From: a virus | Taxonomy: Duplodnaviria > Heunggongvirae > Uroviricota > Caudoviricetes | Length of the DNA: 34,661 bases | IMG/VR virus record: IMGVR_UViG_2531839482_000004 | Strand: one strand, 5' to 3' | The notes under the pieces: generated by a model | What the model was told of the DNA's origin: nothing | The model's input: the letters and a program-made list of their open reading frames with translations, nothing else | Database searches by the model: none | Shown here: piece by piece, positions 1-25,276 of the stretch | Layout: each line of letters begins with the position of its first letter | Position numbering within the stretch: the first letter of the stretch is position 1 | Made by a program: the position numbers and the translations under genes

Positions 1-307
<307 letters not shown>

Positions 308-7106: not shown

Positions 7107-7326
7107 CGGGTCCTTTCCGGCGATCCGACAGGTTACGGGGCGGCGACCTCGCGGGTTTTCGCTATTTATGAAAAATTTCCGGTTTAAGGCGTTTCCGTTC
7201 TTCTTCGTCATAACTTAATGTTTTTATTTAAAATACCCTCTGAAAAGAAAGGAAACGACAGGTGCTGAAAGCGAGCTTTTTGGCCTCTGTCGTTTCCTTT
7301 CTCTGTTTTTGTCCGTGGAATGAACA
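7107..7326 (+). other. helper prophage cos site (cosQ, cosN, cosB)
   Basis: gggtcctttccggcgatccgacaggttacg / GGGCGGCGACCT / cgcgggttttcgctatttatgaaaa... matches the lambda genome termini; cosN 12-nt cohesive end GGGCGGCGACCT at 7138-7149, followed by cosB R-elements (gtttccgttc, aaaggaaacgacagg, tgtcgtttcctttctc) up to the Nu1 start. Confidence 0.92.
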
Positions 7327-7846
7327 ATGGAAGTCAACAAAAAGCAGCTGGCTGACATTTTCGGTGCGAGTATCCGTACCATTCAGAACTGGCAGGAACA
7401 GGGAATGCCCGTTCTGCGAGGCGGTGGCAAGGGTAATGAGGTACTTTATGACTCTGCCGCCGTCATAAAATGGTATGCCGAAAGGGATGCTGAAATTGAG
7501 AACGAAAAGCTGCGCCGGGAGGTTGAAGAACTGCGGCAGGCCAGCGAGGCAGATCTCCAGCCAGGAACTATTGAGTACGAACGCCATCGACTTACGTGTG
7601 CGCAGGCCGACGCACAGGAACTGAAGAATGCCAGAGACTCCGCTGAAGTGGTGGAAACCGCATTCTGTACTTTCGTGTTGTCGCGGATCGCAGGTGAAAT
7701 TGCCAGTATTCTCGACGGGCTCCCCCTGTCGGTGCAGCGGCGTTTTCCGGAACTGGAAAACCGACATGTTGATTTCCTGAAACGGGATATTATCAAAGCC
7801 ATGAACAAAGCAGCCGCGCTGGATGAACTGATACCGGGGTTGCTGA

Positions 7847-7872
<26 letters not shown>
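7327..7872 (+). CDS. nu1: terminase small subunit Nu1
   Basis: 181-aa translation matches recalled lambda gpNu1 except for one or two substitutions. Confidence 0.95.
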
Positions 7873-11553
<3,681 letters not shown>

Positions 11554-13235: not shown

Positions 13236-13257
13236 GGCCGCCTGTGCGGCTTTTTTT
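13236..13257 (+). terminator. stem-loop plus T-tract between D and E
   Basis: gccgcctgtgcggc followed by ttttttt; weak terminator or attenuator-like structure. Confidence 0.35.
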
Positions 13258-13270
13258 ACGGGATTTTTTT

Positions 13271-13546
13271 ATGTCGATGTACACAACCGCCCAGCTGCTG
13301 GCGGCAAATGAGCAGAAATTTAAGTTTGATCCGCTGTTTCTGCGTCTCTTTTTCCGTGAGAGCTATCCCTTCACCACGGAGAAAGTCTATCTCTCACAAA
13401 TTCCTGGACTGGTAAACATGGCGCTGTACGTTTCGCCAATTGTTTCCGGTGAGGTTATCCGTTCCCGTGGCGGCTCCACCTCTGAATTTACGCCGGGTTA
13501 TGTCAAGCCGAAGCACTTAGCATGGCTTTCTGAGGCTTTCGTGTAG
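13271..13546 (+). pseudogene. E: major capsid protein gpE, N-terminal fragment (codons 1-82) interrupted by island insertion
   Basis: MSMYTTAQLLAANEQKFKFDPLFLRLFFRESYPF...TPGYVKPKH matches lambda gpE 1-82, then reads into island DNA (LAWLSEAFV*) and stops at 13546. Confidence 0.92.
13506..13515 (+). repeat. attL core AGCCGAAGCA (left island junction inside E)
   Basis: Identical 10-mer occurs at 24486-24495 at the other junction; sequence outside the pair is contiguous lambda E. Confidence 0.75.
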
Positions 13547-13678
13547 TTGCTGGTTTTTACACTTAATCTTTTGATAATAAAGAATAAGTTTATCTGGCGC
13601 TTTCACTGAATTTTCCTCGTTATCTGTGTGTTGCAATCATCTCTGTATTGCAGCTTGTATTGCTTTTTGGGGCTAAAA

Positions 13679-14914
13679 ATGGCTGGCGAGAACAAACTGA
13701 GCGACAAAGCGCTTAAAGGATATCTGGGGAAACCCAGAGAAAAGCAGATCACCATTGCTGATGGAAAGGGGCTTTCTATTCGTGTGAGTACTAAAGGGGC
13801 TGTGAGCTTTGTTTTCTTCTACAGGTTAGCAGGTGGCCGGGCTGCTCCGGTCTGGCTAACGTTGGGTAAATATCCTGATATGTCACTCAAACAGGCAAGG
13901 GAAAAGCGCGACGAGTGCCGTGGTTGGTTGGCTGACAAACGTGATCCGCGTATCCAGATTAAGATTCAGGCTGAAGAACGCTTAAAGCCGGTCACAGTGG
14001 AGGATGCACTAAATTACTGGTATGAAAATTACTGTAAGGTGCGTCGTAAAACTCATGCTGTAACGCTTGGCAGATTTCGAAAGCATATCTTTCCCTATAT
14101 CGGTCATTTGCCCGTAAATGACACTCACCTATATGAATGGCTGGACTGTTTTGACCGAATTAAACGTAATGCACCAGTTATGGCGGCGTATGTTTTTTCT
14201 GACACTAAATTAGCTCTTCGTTTTTGTCGGGTACGCCAGTACGCGACGTGTGATGCTTTAAAGGATTTGCGCATGAGTGATGTGGGGCAGATTGCAGGTA
14301 AGCGGGATCGGGTTCTGGATGAAGCCGAACTGGGCCAGCTCTGGAAGGCAATTTTTGTCGAGCCTGATTTAAAACTAATGTCTGAATACACGCGAAAAAT
14401 GTTTGTGCTTTGTACAGTATTTGGATGTCGAATGAGTGAAGCCCGATTATCTGAATGGAGTGAATGGGATCTCGAAAGTTGGGTTTGGACTGTACCAAAA
14501 GATCACTCAAAAACTGGTGTTGAAATCGTCAGACCAGTACCTGAAATTCTACGACAGTGGGTAACGGATGTTCACGAAGAGACAAAACATACTGGTTATG
14601 TGCTGGGAAGTCTGCGAATTAGAGAAAGCGTAAGCAAGATTGGGGGGAAAATCGGTAAACGTTTGGGCCATGAAAAACAATGGTCACTACACGACCTTAG
14701 AAGAACGCTATCTACTCATCTAAGTGATCTCGGTGTTGAATTTTATGTAGTAGAACAACTGTTAGGCCATGCGCTACCTGGCGTGGCAGGGGTTTACAAC
14801 AGGAGTACGTTTATGGCTAAAAAACTGGATGCTCTGGAACTCTGGACTACATATCTCAATAGCATCGCAGCTGCTGATTCAAAAGTGACAATCCTCAAAC
14901 AAAAGGCTGGTTAA
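13679..14914 (+). CDS. int: tyrosine integrase, P4-type with N-terminal arm-binding domain
   Basis: N-terminus LSDKALKGYLGKPREKQITIADGKGLSIRVS...LGKYPDMSLKQAREKRDE (DUF4102-like); C-terminal catalytic region with HDLRRT and LGH...GVY motifs; first gene inside the left junction. Confidence 0.88.
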   Translation: MAGENKLSDKALKGYLGKPREKQITIADGKGLSIRVSTKGAVSFVFFYRLAGGRAAPVWLTLGKYPDMSLKQAREKRDECRGWLADKRDPRIQIKIQAEERLKPVTVEDALNYWYENYCKVRRKTHAVTLGRFRKHIFPYIGHLPVNDTHLYEWLDCFDRIKRNAPVMAAYVFSDTKLALRFCRVRQYATCDALKDLRMSDVGQIAGKRDRVLDEAELGQLWKAIFVEPDLKLMSEYTRKMFVLCTVFGCRMSEARLSEWSEWDLESWVWTVPKDHSKTGVEIVRPVPEILRQWVTDVHEETKHTGYVLGSLRIRESVSKIGGKIGKRLGHEKQWSLHDLRRTLSTHLSDLGVEFYVVEQLLGHALPGVAGVYNRSTFMAKKLDALELWTTYLNSIAAADSKVTILKQKAG

Positions 14915-14915
14915 C

Positions 14916-15143
14916 ATGAAAAAAATGGCAATTGTTGATAAAAAGGGTCTGGAGTACATTCCTAACATTGACCGAATGATCCGTGAGAAAGAATGTCGGG
15001 AGCTAACCACTCTTGCGAACAGCACACGCTGGAAGCTGGAGAAGGAAGGAAAATTTCCTAAGCGGATCAAGATTGGCGCTACTGCGGTAGCTTATCGTCT
15101 CTCCGAAGTTCAGGCATGGATTAAGGGAGAATGGAGTAATTAA
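14916..15143 (+). CDS. alpA: AlpA-family HTH regulator / excisionase-like protein
   Basis: 75 aa; ATG overlaps int stop; ...IKIGATAVAYRLSEVQAWIKGE resembles the AlpA HTH pattern; position immediately after int as in E. coli PICIs and P4-like elements. Confidence 0.75.
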   Translation: MKKMAIVDKKGLEYIPNIDRMIREKECRELTTLANSTRWKLEKEGKFPKRIKIGATAVAYRLSEVQAWIKGEWSN

Positions 15144-15161
15144 ATAATAAGGTATTTCGAT

Positions 15162-15983
15162 ATGACAATGTGTGTTATTTGGAAGTCAGTTGATGGAACT
15201 ATTTATGCCGCCACAGATTCTCGACTGAGCTTTGAAGAAAAAAAGTTAGATCGTTGCGTTAAAATATCCCGAATCACATGTCTTTTACATGAGCCTAGTG
15301 ATGCAGTAGATACAAGTAAGATACTTGTTGATAAGCGTGAGATTGCTACATTATTCTGTGGAGGCTTTACAAATGCCTATATCATCAAGGAGAGCCTTAC
15401 TGAGATTTTAAATAAAATAGTTCTCATGAGGGAATACTCCGGCGTGCCCTTTTCGGAAATTATAGATATAGCGTTTTCCATTTATGAAGATACATCAAGA
15501 GATATGTTTGCATCATTAATGGACCAACGATTTGGATGTGTTTTTTACATGATAAGTTACTGCCCTGTATATAAGGAAATGCAAGCATTTAAATTTGAAT
15601 TCAAAATAAATGAAAACGGTATTAACTATTATAAATCTAAACTTTTTGAAGATCGTAACTATGAGGTTAATGGAAGTGGGGTGAGGTACTTGGAACAAAA
15701 TCATCGTATTGAAGATCTAGTTAAAGAAGCTTATCAGAAGAATAAATACACACCACTTCTAGATATACTTGAGTCCGTAATTAATGATGACGACTGTGAC
15801 TCTGTTGGAGGTGCAATGCAATACATTTCATGTAATAAAGATAGACTAAAATTGTGTTGTCATATGTTATTTGAAGAAAATAATCATAAGTATATGAAAG
15901 CTGGGGTGGACTTAAATGAACTCAATGAGAAGTTTATACCTTCTGGTTTGTTTTTTGAGACAGATGCAATCATCAAAAGATAA
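15162..15983 (+). CDS. hypothetical protein, AT-rich cargo gene (possible Ntn-hydrolase-like fold)
   Basis: 273-aa ORF with markedly lower GC than flanks; N-terminus MTMCVIWKSVDGTIYAATDSRL loosely resembles the proteasome/HslV-type N-terminal nucleophile region, with Cys where HslV has Thr. Similarity is weak and unverified. Confidence 0.5.
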   Translation: MTMCVIWKSVDGTIYAATDSRLSFEEKKLDRCVKISRITCLLHEPSDAVDTSKILVDKREIATLFCGGFTNAYIIKESLTEILNKIVLMREYSGVPFSEIIDIAFSIYEDTSRDMFASLMDQRFGCVFYMISYCPVYKEMQAFKFEFKINENGINYYKSKLFEDRNYEVNGSGVRYLEQNHRIEDLVKEAYQKNKYTPLLDILESVINDDDCDSVGGAMQYISCNKDRLKLCCHMLFEENNHKYMKAGVDLNELNEKFIPSGLFFETDAIIKR

Positions 15984-16292
15984 ACGATAACCGACTTTGA
16001 TTGTGATAATTTTATCAAGATTATGATGAATGCTGCAGTATATCTAACATGCTGCAGTTAACTCAATTTGTATTATCGCTAATATTTTTAATAACAAGGA
16101 TGTTTATTGCTTTTTTATTTGAGAGTGAACGTCTAACCATTGTTGTTCTTAGTTCTCATGGAGAGATTGGAGCTTAAAATACGCAATGTTTTGAAATCAG
16201 CGCAACTATATTCCGTAATTGTTCTTTGTCGTTCTTGCGTGGCACGGTGATACACCTCTCATGTCGGTTGTTTTTTTGAACGCAGAAACATA

Positions 16293-16320
16293 AAACAAAG
16301 GCGACCGGGATGGTCGCCAG
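16293..16320 (-). terminator. rho-independent terminator of the leftward island operon
   Basis: ggcgaccgggatggtcgcc hairpin; on the minus strand it is followed by tttgtttt, downstream of the 16387 stop. Confidence 0.5.
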
Positions 16321-16386
16321 TGGCATAACACTAAAATTGAGCGTATTCAGAATACCAAGTGTCGGCTGGTGGACAATGGAATCAGT

Positions 16387-16743
16387 TCAATATTTAGGTG
16401 GTTCAACAAGAGCGTTTATCATTGCTCTCAAATTATCGCGAACACTTATCCAAGTCTGTTCTGCTCGTTCTAACTCATTAGTGTACAGCTTTAATGTTTT
16501 ATCTATGCCATATGTGGCTATTAAATTTATAGCTTCTTGTAACTTTTCGGGATTATTCCTTCTTGGGGGAGTGAATATACCGCGGATTTTTCCGGTAATT
16601 AAAGCTTTACGGTGTCTACATAGAATACCTTTACTTCCTGCTGGACAATTACAAGTCATGATTAGCGAGCCAGAATCGTTTGATACAGTGACTATGTATA
16701 CATCCAAACTACTGCTACTTGTTGCGAAGAATTCGTATTTCAT
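16387..16743 (-). CDS. SWIM-type zinc-finger protein, hypothetical
   Basis: 118-aa ORF with CxC-x7-CxH motif (TCNCPAGSKGILCRH); AAGGAG 8 nt upstream of ATG 16743; preferred over the overlapping plus-strand ORF 16310-16750. Confidence 0.6.
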   Translation of the reverse strand: MKYEFFATSSSSLDVYIVTVSNDSGSLIMTCNCPAGSKGILCRHRKALITGKIRGIFTPPRRNNPEKLQEAINLIATYGIDKTLKLYTNELERAEQTWISVRDNLRAMINALVEPPKY

Positions 16744-16770
16744 GTGTTAGCTCCTTGACTTCAATTATTC

Positions 16771-16965
16771 TTATCCTTTTGGTTCAATACCGCGCCGTAG
16801 CAGCTCTTTGCGCCCTAACTCTTTAAGCCAGTTGGCAAGGCTTACCCCATCGTTACTGGCTTCGTTATCAAACTGCTCCTTCAATTCAGGAACTATGCGC
16901 ATATGGAACGGTGGGGCCTTTCCTGTGCCTTTTTGTTTTTTATCGCGCTTAATAACCGTTGACAT
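16771..16965 (-). CDS. small ribbon-helix-helix-like DNA-binding protein (candidate island regulator)
   Basis: 64 aa; ...FHMRIVPELKEQFDNEASNDGVSLANWLKELGRKEL has a beta-strand/helix/helix pattern like Arc/MetJ-type proteins; start codon abuts a palindromic operator-like site. Confidence 0.55.
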   Translation of the reverse strand: MSTVIKRDKKQKGTGKAPPFHMRIVPELKEQFDNEASNDGVSLANWLKELGRKELLRRGIEPKG

Positions 16966-17026
16966 GTGTACACCTATAGCGTTATGTTTTTATTCGATAG
17001 GTGTACACCTTAACATGTGTGCATTT
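16959..17026. promoter_or_regulatory. divergent control region with inverted repeats (operator candidate)
   Basis: GTGTACACCTAT (16966-16977) and its exact reverse complement ATAGGTGTACAC (16997-17008), 19-bp spacer; related ACATGTGT boxes at 16962 and 17014; TTGACA at 16959-16964. Confidence 0.5.
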
Positions 17027-17300
17027 AAAAACGCAACGCCCCGCAGTGCGGGAACACATGCAGGGCGTCTAACCACCAACGATAGCAACAGTATCGAGGT
17101 AGCTATGAGAAATCATCCCACACACCCGCAAGGGCGGGACTCGCACAACCTGAATAAATTCACTTGGCGCTTTATCGCCCTGAGTGCGGCTAAACCGCGC
17201 ATGCTTACCATCGTGGTCACCAGCGAGCAGGAAGACCGCCAGCAATCCCCAACTGGCTGCGTGATGATATTCGCCGCCCGTATTCGTCAGGAGGTGTGCC

Positions 17301-17525
17301 ATGAATGATCTTTATTTTAAAGTGCTGACACATGCTGAAAACGCGCTCGTTTGTGGCAAAAATATGCGAGAAATCTTATCAACCTGGCTTGATGGGACAA
17401 CAAATGCGGAACACGATGAACGGGATGCTAATTTAGCTGGAGCGTTAATTACGTTACTTGATCCTGTCATCAAAGAGCTGGATGAAGCTATAAAAATACA
17501 CGACCAGAGCTATACCGGAGAATAA
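17301..17525 (+). CDS. hypothetical protein
   Basis: 74-aa ORF, AGGAGG 8 nt upstream of ATG; first gene of the rightward operon leading to the primase. Confidence 0.6.
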   Translation: MNDLYFKVLTHAENALVCGKNMREILSTWLDGTTNAEHDERDANLAGALITLLDPVIKELDEAIKIHDQSYTGE

Positions 17526-17528
17526 AAA

Positions 17529-17816
17529 ATGAAAAATAAATTTTCTGGCTTTATTGCCAGCGGTCAAACTCATTCAAAAATCAGCCTTGGGGATATTTTC
17601 AAAGACAGCTATGGCTATCGGGTAAAGATTATTTCGGTTGATGATCGTCGTGTCTCTTATTTGCGTGATGGTTATGATTTTGAATGTGTTATGCCGCGTC
17701 AGCAGTTCGAAAGAGATTTCATTCTGGTAAAAAATTGCAAGACAGATAATCAGAGGCGTGCCGCAGGCTATATCCGTAAAATTCGGGCAATGTTAGTTGC
17801 CGGAGGTAACAAATGA
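17529..17816 (+). CDS. hypothetical protein
   Basis: 95-aa ORF, GGAGA upstream; tightly coupled to the primase gene (ATGA overlap). Confidence 0.6.
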   Translation: MKNKFSGFIASGQTHSKISLGDIFKDSYGYRVKIISVDDRRVSYLRDGYDFECVMPRQQFERDFILVKNCKTDNQRRAAGYIRKIRAMLVAGGNK

Positions 17817-19633
17817 AACGTGCTCCGAACTTAAAATACCAACCGCGCGACAAAATGACGGAAGTCATCATTTTTGCTGGCAGTGATGCCTGGAGCCATG
17901 CAAAAGAATGGAATGAATGGGCAGGTAAGCATATTGCAGCAGATGATACACCACCAGTCATTCTGGGTACGGAACAACTGGAAAACCTGGATGATATGCA
18001 AATTATCGATGAAGGCCGTCATTATGTGCGTGTTTATCGTGCCGGAAAGATTGCAGAGAAAAGTCTGACGAAGGTTGCGACATTACTTGCTATTGCAGGC
18101 GTAAAGGAAGCACGTTGTTACCGTAGCTTTGTTGATCGAGAGCCTGAAGACTGGACTCCGCGCCTTGTCGGCCTAAAAGCTGAAGCGGAGCATGGGGAAA
18201 GTCTGGTGATTGAACTGCCAGTGAAGAAGGCAGAGCGCAAAAATGACGAGCGTGCTTCATCTTTGGCGTTGAATCAGATGGGGGCCAGCCAGCGCGGTGA
18301 AGTTCTCCTTGCACATTACGGCGGTGAACTGGCAATCAATGCCGACTCTGACACCGTTCATCATTACAACGGCGTTGTATGGGAGCCGGTTCAGGATAAA
18401 GAGTTACAGCGTGCTATGGCGCAGATTTTCATTGATGCGGAGATCAGCTATTCGCAGAACGCTATTAAATCGGCGGTAGATACCATGAAGTTAAGTTTGC
18501 CTGTAATGGGGAATACAGCCCGTAACCTGATTGGATTCAGTAACGGGGTATTTGATACCAGAACTGGTAATTTTCGGGAGCATAACAAAAACGACTGGTT
18601 GTTAATTGCCAGTGAATTACCTTTCAGCCCACCAGCAGAGGGGGAAACGCTGGCAACACATGCGCCGAATTTCTGGAAGTGGTTGCGCCGTTCGGTGGCT
18701 GAGAATGACCGCAAGGCAGATCGCGTACTGGCGGCATTATTCATGGTGCTGGCGAACCGGTACGACTGGCAGTTATTCATTGAGGTAACAGGGCCGGGGG
18801 GAAGTGGTAAAAGTGTGATGGCGGAGATTTGCACCATGCTGGCGGGTAAGGCTAATACAGTATCAGCAAGCATGAAGGCGCTGGAAGATGCAAGGGAACG
18901 TGCGTTAGTGGTTGGCTTTTCGCTGATTATCATGCCGGATATGACCCGCTACGCTGGTGATGGGGCAGGGATTAAGGCCATTACAGGCGGTGACAAGGTG
19001 GCAATTGACCCGAAACACAAAGCCCCCTATTCAACGCGTATTCCGGCAGTAGTGCTGGCGGTTAACAATAACGCCATGTCATTCAGTGACCGCAGCGGGG
19101 GGATCTCACGTCGTCGGGTGATATTCAATTTTTCGGAAGTTGTACCGGAGAACGAACGCGATTCGATGCTGGCGGAAAAAATAGAAGGTGAGCTGGCGGT
19201 AGTGATTCGTCATCTGCTTACAAGGTTTGCTGATCAGGACGAAGCCAGACGCCTGTTATATGAGCAGCAGAAATCTGAAGAAGCACTGGCGATAAAGCGA
19301 GAGGGGGATTCGCTGGTGGACTTCTGCGGTTATCTCATGGCATCGGTAATGTGTGATGGCCTGTTAGTGGGTAATGCTGAAATTGTGCCATTCAGCCCAC
19401 GCAGGTATCTCTATCATGCCTATCTGGCTTATATGAGGGCACATGGGTTTGGTAAACCTGTAACACTGACGCGCTTCGGTAAAGATATGCCGGGGGCAAT
19501 GGCGGAATATGGCAGGGGGTATATGAAACGGAAAACGAAGCACGGTTTGCGTTCAAACGTGACACTGACGGAGGAATCAGAAGACTGGATGCCATCATGT
19601 GTATCGGTCACTAATGACGATAGCAAAAATTAA
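17813..19633 (+). CDS. primase/helicase-type replication protein (P4/PICI pri-rep family, D5-like NTPase)
   Basis: 606 aa; Walker A GPGGSGKS; overall architecture like P4-family primase C-terminal/helicase proteins; GGAGG RBS. Confidence 0.8.
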   Translation: MKRAPNLKYQPRDKMTEVIIFAGSDAWSHAKEWNEWAGKHIAADDTPPVILGTEQLENLDDMQIIDEGRHYVRVYRAGKIAEKSLTKVATLLAIAGVKEARCYRSFVDREPEDWTPRLVGLKAEAEHGESLVIELPVKKAERKNDERASSLALNQMGASQRGEVLLAHYGGELAINADSDTVHHYNGVVWEPVQDKELQRAMAQIFIDAEISYSQNAIKSAVDTMKLSLPVMGNTARNLIGFSNGVFDTRTGNFREHNKNDWLLIASELPFSPPAEGETLATHAPNFWKWLRRSVAENDRKADRVLAALFMVLANRYDWQLFIEVTGPGGSGKSVMAEICTMLAGKANTVSASMKALEDARERALVVGFSLIIMPDMTRYAGDGAGIKAITGGDKVAIDPKHKAPYSTRIPAVVLAVNNNAMSFSDRSGGISRRRVIFNFSEVVPENERDSMLAEKIEGELAVVIRHLLTRFADQDEARRLLYEQQKSEEALAIKREGDSLVDFCGYLMASVMCDGLLVGNAEIVPFSPRRYLYHAYLAYMRAHGFGKPVTLTRFGKDMPGAMAEYGRGYMKRKTKHGLRSNVTLTEESEDWMPSCVSVTNDDSKN

Positions 19634-19644
19634 ACTTATGGAAT

Positions 19645-19800
19645 AACTGTTCACCAAACTATTCACCGTTCACCTTTTTGATTATTTATTGAGCTTCAAG
19701 GGTGAACAGTGGTGAACAGTTGGTGAATAGTTTTTGTGAAACTGTTCACCCATTAACATTATGAATTAAAAGAGAAAATATCAAAAGGTGAACAGGTGAA
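19645..19800. repeat. iteron cluster, candidate island origin of replication
   Basis: About nine copies of GGTGAACAG / CTGTTCACC (and GGTGAAT variants) in both orientations around an AT-rich core (19756-19786), immediately downstream of the primase gene. Confidence 0.75.
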
Positions 19801-19846
19801 GGGTTAAAACGCAAAAATTTTAATTTACTGCTGTGAGATAAAGCCT

Positions 19847-20092
19847 ATGACAGCGAAGCACACAAAAAAATCACAATCGCACGCCCTTGATTTGACGGAA
19901 CACTGGTTAAGGGTGTCGATAAAAATCATCGACCGCAACGCCGGGGAAGGATACGCGAAAGCACATCCCGAACTGATTAGCGCATTCATGACAACGGCGG
20001 CTGCAAACTTTGCCACTCTGACCGAACGGGAGATTGCTGAAGCGGAGGAAGTGACAACAATCAATATTAAGTCCGGAGAGCAGGCAGCATGA
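19847..20092 (+). CDS. hypothetical protein
   Basis: 81-aa ORF between the origin and the ssb-like gene; no family recognised. Confidence 0.5.
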   Translation: MTAKHTKKSQSHALDLTEHWLRVSIKIIDRNAGEGYAKAHPELISAFMTTAAANFATLTEREIAEAEEVTTINIKSGEQAA

Positions 20093-20538
20093 CGGCGCAA
20101 ATATCAGTTTACGGGCGGTTGGTGGACGACCCGCAGACAAAACAGACCAGCAAGGGCACCCCCATGACGCTGGCGCGTATGGCGGTATCACTGCCCTGCA
20201 GTCAGTCGGATGACGGTCAGGCGACGATGTGGTTATCTGTCCTGGCGTTTGGCAGACAAGCCGACGCGCTGGCAAAGCATCACAAAGGCGAACTCCTGAG
20301 CGTGGCGGGTAATATGCAGGTGAGCCAGTGGACTGGACAGAACGGTGAAACGCGGCAGGGCTGGCAGGTTATCGCAGACAGCGTAATCAGTGCGCGAACG
20401 GTGCGACCGGGCGGCAAAAAAGGTCAACAGGGTCAGGCTACTGACGCACTGAACAGAGCAAAACAACAGGTAGATCAGCAAGGAAGCCATCCACCAGTGG
20501 GAGATAATGAGCAATGGGGAGATGATATTCCGTTTTAA
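20089..20538 (+). CDS. ssb: single-stranded DNA-binding protein (SSB-like)
   Basis: 149 aa; OB-fold-like N-terminus, Gly/Gln-rich linker, C-terminal acidic tail ...WGDDIPF as in SSB proteins. Confidence 0.75.
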   Translation: MTAQISVYGRLVDDPQTKQTSKGTPMTLARMAVSLPCSQSDDGQATMWLSVLAFGRQADALAKHHKGELLSVAGNMQVSQWTGQNGETRQGWQVIADSVISARTVRPGGKKGQQGQATDALNRAKQQVDQQGSHPPVGDNEQWGDDIPF

Positions 20539-20755
20539 ATATTGCCAATAAAAAAGGCCGGAAAAAAATAAATTTTCCGGCATGCTACATAAATCCCGAC
20601 CAAAGGGAGTGAAGATATTAACACTAATTATCCGCGCTGAAGTTGTTATCCCAAAACTTTATACAACATTGCACTCGGTTGCATGTATTCGCATGACAAA
20701 TATCGGTGATAGCATATATCCACAATTATTTTTAATGAATGCAAAGAGGATGCGT

Positions 20756-21796
20756 ATGGTTGATTTATATTCGCCTACCCAGCTTGTACAGGTGGTTAAT
20801 GCTGTAGATGTACAAAAACAACTAAATGCGTTGTTTACCAGTTTGTTTTTTACTCGCTCGGTAATGTTTGAATCGCGCGATATTATTCTTGATACAATCG
20901 ACGATCCAAATATCCCAATTGCAGCGTTTTGTTCTCCTATGGTGGGTAGTAAAGTTTCACGTGACGAAGGGTACGAATCAAAAACAATTCGTCCAGGCTA
21001 TATGAAGCCGAAAAGCAGCATTGATCCAAATAAGTTAGCTGTGCGCCCTGCTGGTGTATCACCTGAGCAATACAATGCTTTTGGAGCGCGTAATATTAAA
21101 GTTAAACAGGCGATTGTAAATCAGGCTAAATCTATTCGTGCACGTATTGAATGGCTTGCCGTTCAGGCAATCACAACGGGGAAAAATATCATTGAGGGCG
21201 ATGGTATTGAACGTTATGAGCTGGACTGGAATATTAAACCACAAAATATCATCACTCAGTCTGGCGGTGCTGAGTGGTCAGGTAAGGATAAAGAAACTTT
21301 TGATCCAAATGATGATATTGAGAGCTACGCAGAATTTAGTGAGGGCGTCACTAATATCATCATTATGGGCGGTAATGTATGGAAGAAATACCGTTCATTC
21401 AGAGCGATAAAAGAGGCTCTGGATACCCGTCGTGGTTCTAATTCCGAACTGGAAACGGCCCTTAAAGACCTTGGTGATTCGGTGAGTTTTAAAGGGTATA
21501 TGGGCGATGTTGCGATTGTTGTATACAGCGGGCGTTATACCGACGAGGACGGAACTGAAAAACATTTCCTTGATCCTGATTTGATGGTGCTTGGCAATAC
21601 GGCTCTTCAGGGGATTGTCGCCTATGGCGGTATTCAGGATCCGGAGCTAATCCGAATGGGGCTGACTAAAGCCGAACTTGCACCGAAAAACTATATTGTG
21701 CCTGGTGATCCGGCTATTGAATATGTGCAGACACATTCAGCACCACAGCCAATACCGGCCCGCATCAATCGTTTTGTTACCGTTCGCATTGGCTAA
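20756..21796 (+). CDS. island-encoded major capsid protein, divergent paralog of lambda gpE
   Basis: 346 aa; shares RPGYMKPK, NIITQSGGAEWSGKDKETFDPNDDIESYA, ALDTRRGSNSELETALKDLG, AIVVYSG, MVLGNT with helper gpE but is diverged throughout; AGAGGA RBS 6 nt before ATG 20756. Confidence 0.88.
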   Translation: MVDLYSPTQLVQVVNAVDVQKQLNALFTSLFFTRSVMFESRDIILDTIDDPNIPIAAFCSPMVGSKVSRDEGYESKTIRPGYMKPKSSIDPNKLAVRPAGVSPEQYNAFGARNIKVKQAIVNQAKSIRARIEWLAVQAITTGKNIIEGDGIERYELDWNIKPQNIITQSGGAEWSGKDKETFDPNDDIESYAEFSEGVTNIIIMGGNVWKKYRSFRAIKEALDTRRGSNSELETALKDLGDSVSFKGYMGDVAIVVYSGRYTDEDGTEKHFLDPDLMVLGNTALQGIVAYGGIQDPELIRMGLTKAELAPKNYIVPGDPAIEYVQTHSAPQPIPARINRFVTVRIG

Positions 21797-21805
21797 GGGG
21801 GAGCA

Positions 21806-22147
21806 ATGGCTACTCATTACACTGAACTCATGGCTGGCACTGAAGCACTGGTGACTACGCTGGGGATATTTTCAGCTAATAAAGGGGTAATTCCTGCATT
21901 TACGCCACTGATGCAGGAAGATGCAACAGGTGCACTGGTGGTATGGGATGGTTCGAGCGTAGGTAAAGCGGTTTATGTTTCCGCTGTACAAATCGACACC
22001 GCGAAAAAAACACAGGCTCAGGTCTATAAGACAGGTGTCTTAAATGTTGATGCTCTGAACTGGCCTGAGTCTGTAAAAGAACTGTCAGTAAAGATTGCAG
22101 CGTTTGTTGGCTCAGGTATTTCTGTTCAGCCGCTGGCTCGTGTGTAA
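21806..22147 (+). CDS. island-encoded decoration protein, divergent paralog of lambda gpD
   Basis: 113 aa; shares TPLM, LVVWDG, YKTGV, WPE, AAFVGSGISV with gpD; lies downstream of the capsid gene (order E-like then D-like, opposite to lambda). Confidence 0.75.
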   Translation: MATHYTELMAGTEALVTTLGIFSANKGVIPAFTPLMQEDATGALVVWDGSSVGKAVYVSAVQIDTAKKTQAQVYKTGVLNVDALNWPESVKELSVKIAAFVGSGISVQPLARV

Positions 22148-22158
22148 AGGGGGATACA

Positions 22159-22542
22159 ATGCAGAATGATTACAATGACCTTAAGCCAATTGCCGAAATG
22201 ATGTACCCGAATCCAGCTGTAGAGGAATTAAAAGCTATCGCTGACAAAATGTGTTTAAGCGAGCGCCTTGTTGATATGAATCAGGTGATGGAAATTACAA
22301 CCCTGAGTCGGCGTACACTGCTAAACCTTGAGGCTAGTGGAGAGTTCCCGGAGCGTGTGCAGGTTACGGAAGGGCGTAAGGCCTGGTATTTAAGTGAAGT
22401 GATCGACTGGATAAATAATATTCCTCGCGCTTCTGAATATTGCCGCGTACCTGTCCCAAAAAAGCCAGATGCGGCGCTATGCCTCAAGATTGAGCGTGTA
22501 CGCCGCAATGCACGGGATGGTCGCTATAAGCTGATTGGTTGA
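22159..22542 (+). CDS. AlpA/MerR-like HTH protein with N- and C-terminal extensions
   Basis: 127 aa; core MEITTLSRRTLLNLEASGEFPERVQVTEGRKAWYLSEVIDWI fits the AlpA-type HTH pattern. Confidence 0.6.
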   Translation: MQNDYNDLKPIAEMMYPNPAVEELKAIADKMCLSERLVDMNQVMEITTLSRRTLLNLEASGEFPERVQVTEGRKAWYLSEVIDWINNIPRASEYCRVPVPKKPDAALCLKIERVRRNARDGRYKLIG

Positions 22543-22565
22543 TGAAATTAGGGCCCGCTCTGGCT

Positions 22566-22787
22566 GGCGGGTCCTTTCCGGCGATCTGACAGGCTACGGG
22601 GCGTCAGGCGCGCAGTTTTTCGCTATTTGTGAAAATTTTCCTGTTTAAGGCGTTTCCGTTCTTCTTCGCCGTAACTTAATGTTTTTATTAAAAACACCCC
22701 CTAAAAAGAAAGGAAACGACAGGTGCTAAAAACAGGCTTTTTGGCCTCTGTCGTTTCCTTTCTCTGGTTTTGTCCGTGGAATGAACA
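22566..22787 (+). other. island cos site (cosQ and cosB conserved, cosN divergent)
   Basis: Aligns base-for-base with helper cos 7107-7326, but the cosN position reads GGGCGTCAGGCG (helper GGGCGGCGACCT), with further changes just downstream. Confidence 0.8.
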
Positions 22788-22853
22788 ATGGAAGCCAACA
22801 AAAAGCAGCTGGCTGACATTTTCGGTGCGAGTATCCGTACCATTCAGAACTAG
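22788..22853 (+). pseudogene. Nu1-paralog N-terminal segment ending in an in-frame amber codon (codon 22)
   Basis: MEANKKQLADIFGASIRTIQN then TAG where helper Nu1 has TGG (Trp). Confidence 0.7.
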
Positions 22854-22865
22854 CAGGAGCAGGGA

Positions 22866-23339
22866 ATGCCCGTTCTGCGAGGCGGTGGCAAGGGTAATGA
22901 GGTGCTTTATGACTCTGCCGCCGTCATAAAATGGTATGCCGAAAGGGATGCTGAAATTGAGAACGAAAAGCTGCGCCGGGAGGTTGAAGAACTGCGGCAG
23001 GCCAGCGAGGCAGATCTCCTGCCAGGGACTATTGAGTATGAACGCCATCGACTTACGCGTGCGCAGGCCGACGCACAGGAACTGAAGAATGCCAGCGAAA
23101 CAGGTGAGGTAATTGACACTGCATTTGCGACTTATGCTTTGTCGAAATTAACTGGGGAAGTTGGAGCAATCATTGATAGTCTTCCACTTGCGATCTGTCG
23201 ACAGTTTCCTGGCATGGAAAAACGGTATCAGGACTTCATTAAGATGGAGGTCAGTAAAGCATTTATTCGAGCTTACCAGATCTCAGATAACATTCCAGAT
23301 ATGGCTGAAAGGTATATCAAGGATAATCAGCGAAGTTAA
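22866..23339 (+). CDS. N-terminally truncated terminase small-subunit paralog (Nu1 residues 27-end; divergent C-terminal domain)
   Basis: Starts at the codon equivalent to Nu1 Met27, where a GAA->GAG change creates a GGAG Shine-Dalgarno 6 nt upstream; first ~80 aa near-identical to Nu1, last ~75 aa replaced by AT-rich divergent sequence. Confidence 0.7.
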   Translation: MPVLRGGGKGNEVLYDSAAVIKWYAERDAEIENEKLRREVEELRQASEADLLPGTIEYERHRLTRAQADAQELKNASETGEVIDTAFATYALSKLTGEVGAIIDSLPLAICRQFPGMEKRYQDFIKMEVSKAFIRAYQISDNIPDMAERYIKDNQRS

Positions 23340-23445
23340 AACAAATGAAACCATAGGTAGGAAGAGTGCTTAGGTGGTTCTTTGTTGCTTAAAAGTCGCC
23401 AGTAAAACTGGCGATAGATTTTATTTGTCAAAAGCATTTGACCTT

Positions 23446-24351
23446 TTAAGGTAGTGGTACTATGGATATTTTTCTGTCGTTCCCAAATGAACTTTTAAAT
23501 AATTTCGCTCTTGGATACATCTTAACTAGTGATGCGACTTCATCGAACTCGCTGGCATCAAAAAGAGGACCAAGTATTACAGATTTTAACTCAAAAGGGT
23601 GAAATTTTAAGTCGCTATATTGACCAGTGCTATTTGGCCTAGCGTAGGTTGAAATTCTCCACTCTCTTTCATATGCCCATTCTTCTGTTTTTATGAATAT
23701 TATCTCATTATTGATATATTCAATTGACTTATTGTCTGGCATGAAAAGCAACTCGGCCATCCCTTCAGCAGTGTGAGTTAGAGGCATTTCATCTGTGTAT
23801 TTCATAGGTTTGGCTATTAACCAAGCGCTATCCAGAAAGTCTACACAATCAAATTCGATAACTATACCTTTATATTTATCGGCATAGTGATTCCACATAG
23901 GAGTGATTATAGGGCTCTCAGATAAACACAAAATCCTTCTGTTATTAAGCATTCCTCGCCAGACATCTTTCATTTCTTGTATTGCCGCAGGAGCGCCAAT
24001 CCCAACTGGTGGAATGTTTACCATTTCTTGAAATCTTTCAATTAATCCTGCGGGTATGCCTAAAGGAAATGACTTTTGGAAATCACTTAGCATTGTTCTA
24101 ATTCTAGGGTTTAAATTTTGTATGTCTTCTCTGGGGGTAATCAACTCCGCTATTAACTTGCGGGCTAAAGCTTTGCCAATATTAATTTCGTTAATACCAG
24201 GCATAACTTCTCTTGGAACATCAAAAGGGTCATTAAATAGGACCGGAGAACTCCATCTAAGGCTGCATGAATCAAGAACAATTTTCGCGGTATTCAACGA
24301 CATATACTTATAAAATGTTGAGCGTTCATGCATTCTGTTGGGTGAGCGCAT
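23446..24351 (-). CDS. hypothetical protein, DUF2971-like, AT-rich cargo gene
   Basis: 301 aa; N-terminal FYKYMSL...LRWSSPVLFNDPFD and WAYEREWRI motifs as recalled for DUF2971 proteins; low GC; GAGGA RBS; last gene before the right junction. Confidence 0.55.
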   Translation of the reverse strand: MRSPNRMHERSTFYKYMSLNTAKIVLDSCSLRWSSPVLFNDPFDVPREVMPGINEINIGKALARKLIAELITPREDIQNLNPRIRTMLSDFQKSFPLGIPAGLIERFQEMVNIPPVGIGAPAAIQEMKDVWRGMLNNRRILCLSESPIITPMWNHYADKYKGIVIEFDCVDFLDSAWLIAKPMKYTDEMPLTHTAEGMAELLFMPDNKSIEYINNEIIFIKTEEWAYEREWRISTYARPNSTGQYSDLKFHPFELKSVILGPLFDASEFDEVASLVKMYPRAKLFKSSFGNDRKISIVPLP

Positions 24352-24485
24352 AGATTCCTCTTGTTAAATGAGTGATGGTTTTCATCCATGTATTGCACGT
24401 TGTATTGCATTCAAGGATTTTCCATTTCAATTCTATAGCTAAAACGTAATCAAATCATTCACATCCTTTCATATTTGACTCATGT

Positions 24486-24495
24486 AGCCGAAGCA
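24486..24495 (+). repeat. attR core AGCCGAAGCA (right island junction)
   Basis: Identical to 13506-13515; E coding sequence resumes in frame immediately afterwards. Confidence 0.75.
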
Positions 24496-25276
24496 TGAGG
24501 TGAATCCGCAGATGACCCTGCGTCGCCTGCCGGATGAAGATCCGCAGAATCTGGCGGACCCGGCTTACCGCCGCCGTCGCATCATCCTGCAGAACATGCG
24601 TGACGAAGAGCTGGCCATTGCTCAGGTCGAAGAGATGCAGGCAGTTTCTGCCGTGCTCAAGGGCAAATACACCATGACCGGTGAAGCCTTCGATCCGGTT
24701 GAGGTGGATATGGGCCGCAGTGCGGCGAACAACATCACGCAGTCCGGCGGCACGGAGTGGAGCAAGCGTGACAAGTCCACGTATGACCCGACCGACGATA
24801 TCGAAGCCTACGCGCTGAACGCCAGCGGCGTGGTGAATATCATCGTGTTTGATCCGAAAGGCTGGGCGCTGTTCCGTTCCTTCAAAGCCGTCAAGGAGAA
24901 GCTGGATACCCGTCGCGGCTCTAATTCCGAGCTGGAGACAGCGGTAAAAGACCTGGGCGAAGCGGTGTCCTATAAGGGGATGTATGGCGATACGGCGATC
25001 GTCGTGTATTCCGGACAGTACGTGGAAAACGACGTCAAAAAGAACTTCCTGCCGGACAACACGATGGTGCTGGGGAACACTCAGGCACGCGGTCTGCGCA
25101 CCTATGGCTGCATTCAGGATGCGGACGCACAGCGCGAAGGTATTAACGCCTCTGCCCGCTACCCGAAAAACTGGGTGACCACCGGCGATCCGGCGCGTGA
25201 GTTCACCATGATTCAGTCAGCACCGCTGATGCTGCTGGCTGATCCTGATGCGTTCGTGTCCGTACAACTGGCGTAA
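24486..25276 (+). pseudogene. E: major capsid protein gpE, C-terminal fragment (codons ~80-341)
   Basis: ...KHEVNPQMTLRRLPDEDPQNLADPAYRRRRIILQNMRDEE... to ...FVSVQLA matches lambda gpE; preceded in frame by a TAG from island DNA. Confidence 0.92.

Follow-up and report, generated by a model that had tools for sequence, protein, structure and literature searches.

A complete lambda-type cos site carrying a variant cosN in a helper-embedded satellite of the 11capE type

The window, that is, the whole stretch of 34,661 nucleotides analysed here (IMG/VR virus record IMGVR_UViG_2531839482_000004), is a lambda-like prophage (porin moron, lysis cassette, Bor, cos1, Nu1, A, W, B, C, D) with an island inside its major capsid gene, and this island contains a second cos, which we call cos2. 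We propose that cos2 is probably a functional, phage-derived packaging site of an 11capE-type PICI, which the helper terminase would cut at the positions homologous to those of cos1. Its cohesive end reads GGGCGTCAGGCG instead of the GGGCGGCGACCT of the resident site, and this 12-mer is a natural cosN allele that circulates in this island family and occurs rarely in lambda-like phages. Taken on the sequence comparisons described below, the variant cosN is most likely a natural variant, neither a broken nor a re-targeted site, in which the end sequence is altered and the cutting position probably is not. A second helper-like cos in this island type is already known (PMC10111431), and published work leads one to expect a second cos whose cosN varies in the right half; its mechanism is ordinary. 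What is new is modest: this allele and its strong link to satellites, a PICI in which the helper cosB is kept, and a terS of the island that had been overlooked.

The insertion divides the major capsid gene E, whose N-terminal part lies at 13244-13546 and whose C-terminal part lies at 24500-25276. The split falls at a 10-bp identity block, AGCCGAAGCA, which forms the island junctions at 13506-13515 and 24486-24495, placed by comparison with the intact E gene of the prophage locus L020, and this is the capsid-E site used by 11capE-type helper-embedded PICIs (HE-PICIs). The gene set is also that of a PICI, with integrase, AlpA, primase/replicase and an own capsid gene in about 11 kb. It comprises a tyrosine integrase, AlpA, a DUF2971 protein, a SWIM protein, a D5-type primase/helicase, an SSB and an own E-family capsid protein, together with an own D-family decoration protein, a second AlpA-like protein and a second DUF2971 protein encoded on the minus strand; Pfam matches are PF00589, PF05930, D5_N/Pox_D5, PF03864 and PF02924. 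cos2 and a Nu1-family gene sit between the second AlpA-like and the second DUF2971 genes. With coverage of 80% or more of the cos2/terS query, about 30 RefSeq genomes show the same arrangement and have the same genes annotated.

Tommasini, Mageeney & Williams (2023, PMC10111431) described 11capE, a helper-embedded PICI which sits in the E. coli NRG857c prophage 50icd and has a 10-bp att identity block and an own capsid gene. The same study found 201 similar elements at the same capsid site and reported that 11capE carries a 258-bp cos-like sequence about 90% identical to that of the helper. Excision and replication of the model were demonstrated, and virions from the model composite were not detected (PMC10111431). 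The island of the window resembles 11capE in its capsid-E integration site, 10-bp identity block, size of about 11 kb, gene order (int/AlpA/primase/own capsid) and a cos-like stretch of about 90% identity. It differs in that terS is said to be lacking in the published element, whereas the window island has a Nu1-family terS with an internal stop; the publication is silent on the cosN difference (PMC10111431). A search for follow-up literature on the packaging of HE-PICIs found none.

Some other features of prophage and island can be described here. Two cargo genes lie in the late region of the prophage, one for a Bor/Iss lipoprotein (PF06291; 6088-6429, minus strand) and one, in a stretch of low GC, for an OmpC-family porin (PF00267; 3215-4297, minus strand). 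The two DUF2971-type genes lie near opposite ends of the island (15162-15983, plus strand, and 23446-24351, minus strand) according to RefSeq annotation, which Pfam backs for the second only. The accessory region varies among related islands, and in locus L001 other genes take the place of the first DUF2971-type gene. Inside both island ends there is a doubled 30-nt motif containing TGTATTGCA (13637-13666 and 24382-24411; the copies are 83% identical), which is probably the 'doubled DNA motif' reported as unique to HE-PICIs.

Table 1. Coordinates of the two cos sites, the terminase genes and the island in the window, with the differences between cos2 and cos1
Feature	Positions	Strand	Differences, cos2 vs cos1	Remarks
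cos1, resident prophage cos	7108..7302	+		cosQ 7108-7114, R3 7187-7202, R2 7248-7263, R1 7287-7302
cos1 canonical cosN, GGGCGGCGACCT	7138-7149	+
Helper terminase genes Nu1 + A	7327..9772	+
Helper Nu1	7327-7872	+		PF07471
Helper A (gpA, TerL)	7847-9772	+
Island, 11capE-type helper-embedded PICI	13506..24495	+		10,980 bp; same layout in L001 and L002; type described in PMC10111431
cos2, complete lambda-type cos (cosQ to R1)	22569..22763	+		gap-free alignment to cos1
cosQ heptamer GGGTCCT	22569..22575	+	0/7	ends 23 bp before nick; identical to cos1 7108-7114
cosQ-cosN spacer			2/21
Nick flanks (CG/CG)	22597-22598 and 22611-22612		0/4
cosN 12-mer, GGGCGTCAGGCG	22599..22610	+		in 53 IMG/VR contigs
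cosN 1-5			0/5
cosN 6-12			5/7	positions 6, 8, 9, 10, 12
I2			5/35	including positions 16 and 18
R3 (AGGCGTTTCCGTTCTT), TerS-binding element	22648..22663	+	0/16	lambda positions 50-65
I1, IHF-site interval between R3 and R2	22664..22708	+	6/45	length kept; IHF role inferred from lambda
R2, inverted R element (AAAGGAAACGACAGGT on + strand)	22709..22724	-	0/16
R2-R1 spacer			4/22
R1 (CTGTCGTTTCCTTTCT)	22748..22763	+	0/16
Island terS (Nu1 family)	22788..23339	+		lambda-type DNA-binding domain, divergent C-terminal half

cos2 has what a lambda-like cos has: the distance of cosQ, the frame CG-GGGCG.......-CG around the nicks, and R3, I1, inverted R2 and R1 at fixed spacing (Table 1), R3 being known for its role in TerS binding (PMC9026076). 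Set against lambda cos itself, cos2 has the same elements in unchanged order and spacing, with no difference in cosQ, in R3, R2 and R1, in the CGs next to the nicks or in cosN 1-5, and about 190 bp from the nick a gene of the Nu1 family likewise starts; the differences are the five cohesive-end positions, the 11-kb satellite host, and an adjacent terS that is chimeric and carries an amber stop. A prior reading made from the letters of the window, here the sequence-only reading, had described a second helper-like cos inside an island, and the alignment with cos1 bears this out, being free of gaps not only over the site but from cosQ through codon ~93 of the Nu1 gene. It had also held that the island cos is not a simple copy of the resident one and that its terminase-binding elements are retained, and both points hold. 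With the nick set before 7138 in cos1 and before 22599 in cos2, 23 of the 220 positions from cosQ to the terS ATG differ (197/220 = 89.5% identity), and these differences are unevenly placed: none falls in the 64 positions of the named contact elements vs 18/149 (12%) in the spacers (deficit p = 0.002), and cosN 6-12 has an excess (Fisher p = 1.5e-4). The different 12-nt cohesive end and the changes just 3' of it, in I2, were likewise read correctly. The expression 'cosN replaced' was too strong, since it describes positions 6-12 but not cosN 1-5 and the CGs on both sides of the nicks, which are unchanged; within cosN's left half, bp 6 alone is changed (G to T).

These changes lie mostly where lambda-type cosN sites are known to vary. 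Lambda-like phages often differ at bp 7-12, N15 and phiD326 doing so at 9 and 12 and Gifsy-1 at 8, 9 and 11, and TerL-lambda nicks right-half variants efficiently, anchored by R3-bound TerS (PMC4669245). Genetic data point the same way: G2C in cosN is deleterious and the symmetric C11G is silent, and cosQ, the left half of cosN and the CG flanks are under selection while bp 7-12 are not (PMC4669245). The cosN of cos2 resembles those of N15, phiD326 and Gifsy-1 in that the variation sits in the cosB-proximal part with CG flanks, left half and cosQ conserved, and its A9G and T12G are at positions shared with N15. Nevertheless it has five changes, including bp 6, against two or three in those phages, its allele is mainly satellite-borne (49 of 53 contigs), and the terminase genes adjacent to it are 98-99% lambda-like. 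Apart from bp 6, the island allele thus fits the published right-half tolerance. bp 6 belongs formally to the left half, where mutations can hurt, and we count it against our main explanation. The suggestion that the nicking site is functionally altered finds no support here, because the changes are where lambda TerL is insensitive (Feiss et al. 2015, PMC4669245) and the gpA of phages with the variant or the sister allele is 98-99% identical to that of the helper, with no residue that co-varies.

The distribution of the allele was followed in IMG/VR by a scan for lambda-type cos anchored on TACGGGGCG...TTTTCGCTATTT. In this anchored scan GGGCGGCGACCT was the majority allele, and GGGCGGAAGGCG, GGGCGTCAGGCG and a single GGGCGGCAGGCG were also found. 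A targeted scan found GGGCGTCAGGCG in 53 contigs, 49 of them islands of this family, with the island upstream genes (AlpA-like and D-like, 94-100% identity), and four in ordinary lambda-like prophage contexts (L020, L153, L160 and L176, predicted prophages and not isolated phages). Because the same 12-mer recurs in L001, L002 and these 53 contigs, a sequencing error, which the sequence-only reading had allowed for, is excluded, and so is a one-off mutation. That reading had also called for a comparison with the cosN of other lambdoid phages, and this turned out informative: beside the four prophages with the exact allele, a sister allele, GGGCGGAAGGCG, which differs from GGGCGTCAGGCG at positions 6 and 7 only, is present in phage contexts that include the deposited phage genomes PhiR46_1 (PV340565; record host E. 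coli ECOR13) and YDC107_1. A literature text search for the three variant 12-mers returned unrelated primer matches only.

The terminases next to these alleles are nearly the same. In L020, L160 and L176, full Nu1 and gpA genes stand beside GGGCGTCAGGCG, with Nu1 97-98% and gpA 98-99% identical to those of the helper. Over 34 full-length sequences, gpA varies in 38 of 632 columns, no one of which follows the cosN allele (canonical or variant), and we therefore reject a terminase adapted to the variant cosN. Given near-identical gpA beside the canonical, the variant and the sister allele, essentially one terminase stands next to at least three different 12-mers.

Within the islands the allele is stable. 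Across 18 distinct island haplotypes with lambda-type cosB no variable site was found in cosN from -1 to 14, and the flanking spacers vary at 9/21 and 8/35 positions; cosQ is invariant too, though partly fixed by the search pattern. In the same way, the left-of-nick CG and cosN 1-5 were fixed by the search patterns and their invariance is no independent evidence: in the sample anchored on the island upstream context, positions -3 to 5 are fixed and only 6-15 are free. C11 and C13, which the patterns left free, are invariant in every allele.

An allele-unbiased scan, anchored on the island-specific upstream context only, retrieved 80 of 101 loci and revealed that the cosN allele goes with the type of cosB. 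Islands with lambda-type cosB carry GGGCGTCAGGCG in 24 of 24 cases (16 haplotypes) and no other allele, and those with a third, diverged cosB type (type C) carry it in 8 of 8, again with no other allele. Among 38 islands with non-lambda cosB the allele appears in five, with 27 canonical, four GGGCGGAAGGCG and two other sites. A naive Fisher test of this association gives p = 1e-12 without phylogenetic correction. In the seven composites covered, the window and six RefSeq genomes, the helper cosN is canonical (7/7). The third type, seen in L139, L136, L154 and others, departs from about 60 bp after the nick and has diverged R-like elements, e.g. GCCGTTTCTGTTCTT, with no Nu1-family gene downstream.

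The closest relatives of the window island by their capsid, decoration and AlpA-like genes, L083, L091 and L099 (95-100% identity), are identical to it up to cosQ. Past cosQ their cosN is canonical and their cosB has no lambda R elements; a Nu1-family protein of 175-184 aa with an unrelated N-terminus follows, located at 3057-3611 in L083 and 34-38% identical to Nu1. This module is the arrangement described for Rpp-type PICIs (PMC6739421, PMC9026076). Here an 'Rpp-like' label would reflect position and the 34-38% identity to Nu1 only; the L083 protein 3' of the non-lambda cosB gave no PDB match to RppC, and the Nu1-family protein of these three islands may be a full-length alternative TerS and not Rpp.

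The sequence-only reading had also raised the capture of cos2 from a different lambdoid phage, and a foreign lambdoid origin is plausible. cos2 is nearer to the PhiR46_1/YDC107_1-type cos (93.6%) than to lambda (89.7%) or to cos1 (89.5%), the exact 12-mer occurs in the four lambda-like prophage contexts, and in L083, L091 and L099 a different cosB module is joined at the same place. Three or four of the 18 island cosB haplotypes nest among phage haplotypes, with 2-5 differences in 146 bp from the nearest phage, and they keep the variant cosN, two of them adjoining canonical-cosN phages. As these nested haplotypes have kept the variant cosN, exchange must have been repeated to the right of cosN, and single descent as the basis of the association is weakened. 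Most simply, GGGCGTCAGGCG is read as the allele resident in the island lineage, with crossovers in the conserved I2 stretch right of cosN.

The gene that follows cos2 belongs to the Nu1 family. In comparison with the helper Nu1, 91 of the N-terminal 95 residues of the island TerS are identical and the C-terminal half has 38/88 (~43%). Residues 1-98 match lambda TerS (6HN7_B, E = 4.6e-58), and the match to RppC (6HLK) has E = 0.053 only. In INPHARED phages no TerS has a C-terminal half close to that of the island, the best match being 47%, and NCBIfam has no family for Nu1, the island TerS or the Nu1-like protein of the relatives. In the window codon 22 is an amber stop (TGG to TAG, 22851-22853). 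The same codon is TAG in 6 of 10 related loci and TGG, leaving the gene intact, in 4 of 10; the intact product has 183 aa and belongs to a cluster (P0001) of 115 members, and RefSeq names the equivalent gene 'terminase small subunit, internal stop'. Downstream of the amber an AGGAG lies 6 nt before Met27 (ATG at 22866), where a restart could give an N-terminally truncated product of 157 aa without the recognition helix. Since the Nu1 of the resident helper is lambda-type, cos2 should be recognised without an island protein in the window.

Other islands of the family have no terS at all. In L127, L133, L141 and L142, which also lack rpp, phage homology starts at cosQ and ends ~12 bp past R1. 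This trimming is in keeping with retention of the cos itself. Measured from the nick, the phage-homologous stretch of these four runs from about 35 bp before to 180 bp after it. A different situation is seen in two RefSeq genomes (L179, 3685-4448, NZ_CP115821.1; L180, 3441-4204, NZ_CP159453.1), whose helper combines a non-lambda cosB with a TerS N-terminus of phage-21 type, and whose embedded island has a lambda-type cosB with an amber terS. By their sequence, these resident helpers should not recognise the lambda-type cos of their island, which would depend on either a different lambda-type phage or an island TerS that is intact.

The anatomy of cos2, the pattern of its conservation, the recurrence of its allele and the near-identical terminases beside different cosN alleles are observed; cleavage and its exact position, packaging and concatemer size are what we infer. 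The helper Nu1 (TerS) and IHF would bind the unchanged R3-I1-R2-R1 array, and the array-bound TerS would anchor the helper TerL (gpA), placing nicks on either side of 22599-22610; the changed cosN bases fall in the right part, and a lambda-type TerL does not read this part. Packaging of an island concatemer would then proceed rightward through about four units of 10.98 kb (43.9 kb, within the lambda packaging range) and end at a downstream cos2 by means of the conserved cosQ. The product would have 12-nt 5' ends GGGCGTCAGGCG, which would pair with one another and be mismatched to helper ends at 5 of 12 positions. Published experiments showed that cloned cos sites suffice for lambda- or phi80-mediated plasmid transfer (PMC6739421). 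The untouched contact elements, the terS-less relatives that keep cosQ to R1 and the cosN that is invariant in 18 haplotypes suggest that cos2 is maintained. Besides bp 6, we count against this explanation that the terS of the window is inactivated, that virions of the model composite went undetected (PMC10111431), that the exact allele is found outside islands in four predicted prophages rather than in isolated phages, and that the helpers of L179 and L180 are 21-type.

There are other explanations of the site. cos2 might be a decaying, disused relic of captured helper late DNA (cos and nu1), with the cosN changes and the terS amber as signs of decay. The amber, which the window shares with 6 of 10 related loci, the undetected virions (PMC10111431) and the late-gene capture described for this PICI group would agree with a relic, but decay should strike R3, R2, R1 and cosQ like the spacers, which the 0/64 vs 18/149 count contradicts. 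Furthermore, the cosN allele is invariant over 16-18 haplotypes with diverged spacers, terS-less relatives retain precisely cosQ to R1, and the same allele stands in intact prophage packaging regions, so we consider a relic unlikely. The intact 183-aa TerS in relatives and the place of island terS directly downstream of cos2, as Nu1 in lambda, could also mean that cos2 was made for the island's own TerS in the manner of SaPIs, the variant cosN reflecting a differently positioned TerL and the system being dead in the window through the amber; 21-type helpers as in L179 and L180 could use the island cos only through such a protein. Yet many islands have the same cos and cosN allele without any terS, the variant cosN is found beside ordinary Nu1 and gpA in phage contexts as well, and the cosN-R3 spacing is unchanged, which makes this possibility an unlikely one.

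It is also conceivable, though we give it only a slight chance, that the variant end was selected as a 'private' end, by which a satellite that shares the helper cosB avoids the annealing and cyclising of cos2-to-cos1 chromosomes (~45 kb) or of mixed co-injected ends. Stated for composites in general, and with a similarly small likelihood, their two cos sites would never be equivalent: satellites would change cosB, with an own TerS or Rpp-like protein, or, when they have the helper cosB, carry a different 12-mer as a selected private end. The figures from the allele-unbiased scan agree with this, from the variant in every lambda-type and type-C cosB island to the mainly canonical sites of the non-lambda group (27/38, with the variant in only 5/38) and the canonical helper cosN of all seven composites, and so do the three or four phage-nested haplotypes that still have the variant cosN, two of them beside canonical-cosN phages. 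A 2-bp mismatch of cohesive ends already costs about fourfold in yield (PMC4669245). However, the counts are not phylogenetically independent, a resident lineage allele (TCAGGCG) with crossovers in the conserved I2 to its right is a simpler reading, non-cyclising hybrids offer no evident fitness benefit to the island, and five islands have a non-lambda cosB beside the variant cosN, although private ends would not be needed there. On balance we retain cos2 as a helper-cut packaging site whose cosN is a natural variant.

In comparison with the satellites studied so far, EcCICFT073 with its cos1 and Rpp (PMC6739421, PMC9026076) is similar in having a satellite cos, at the same position in a Gram-negative PICI, presumed to be cut by the helper TerL. 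In Rpp-type PICIs cosQ and cosN stay helper-like while cosB, devoid of R elements, is a replacement that calls for Rpp-TerS; the window island does the reverse: R3, R2 and R1 are present and identical to those of the helper, there is no rpp, and the adjacent gene is Nu1-type. As to the small-terminase strategy of SaPIs, the island does have a terS; in the window its codon 22 is the amber, and 4 of 10 relatives have the gene without it. In this sense, the window island is a natural counter-example to the Rpp paradigm of Gram-negative cos PICIs (cosN conserved, cosB replaced), and satellites that retain the full helper cosB could be packaged by an unmodified helper terminase. The tolerance of lambda-type terminases would be extended to five cohesive-end changes, bp 6 included. 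Should cleavage be confirmed, satellite DNA could be recognised simply by its GGGCGTCAGGCG end in end-sequencing data from viromes. That the cosN allele goes with the cosB type offers a testable lead on how satellite and helper avoid or exploit two cos sites per replicon, and, if the ends are indeed private, satellite-helper hybrid chromosomes (e.g. the ~45-kb cos2-to-cos1 product) or mixed ends would be kept from cyclising.

The composite has a tandem-cos geometry, cos1 and cos2 being 15,461 bp apart in direct orientation, and an arc of ~45 kb from cos2 to cos1 would follow for the 61-kb composite of the publication. Chromosomes cut between unlike cos sites cyclise with mismatched ends that are resolved by replication, which moves the 12-mer as a unit between cos backgrounds (PMC4669245). 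cos1 with the 5' half of Nu1 (7108-7610) and cos2 with the 5' half of terS (22569-23070) form direct repeats of about 500 bp that are ~94% identical, a potential substrate for deletion, gene conversion or cos-to-cos packaging of a hybrid chromosome. A promoter and terminator scan around cos2 gave nothing beyond chance. Directly 3' of the AlpA-like stop codon there is an 8-bp stem, GGGCCCGC / GCGGGTCC, with an 8-nt loop (22551-22574), whose 3' arm overlaps cosQ; phage cos contexts lack this arrangement, which the island family has kept.
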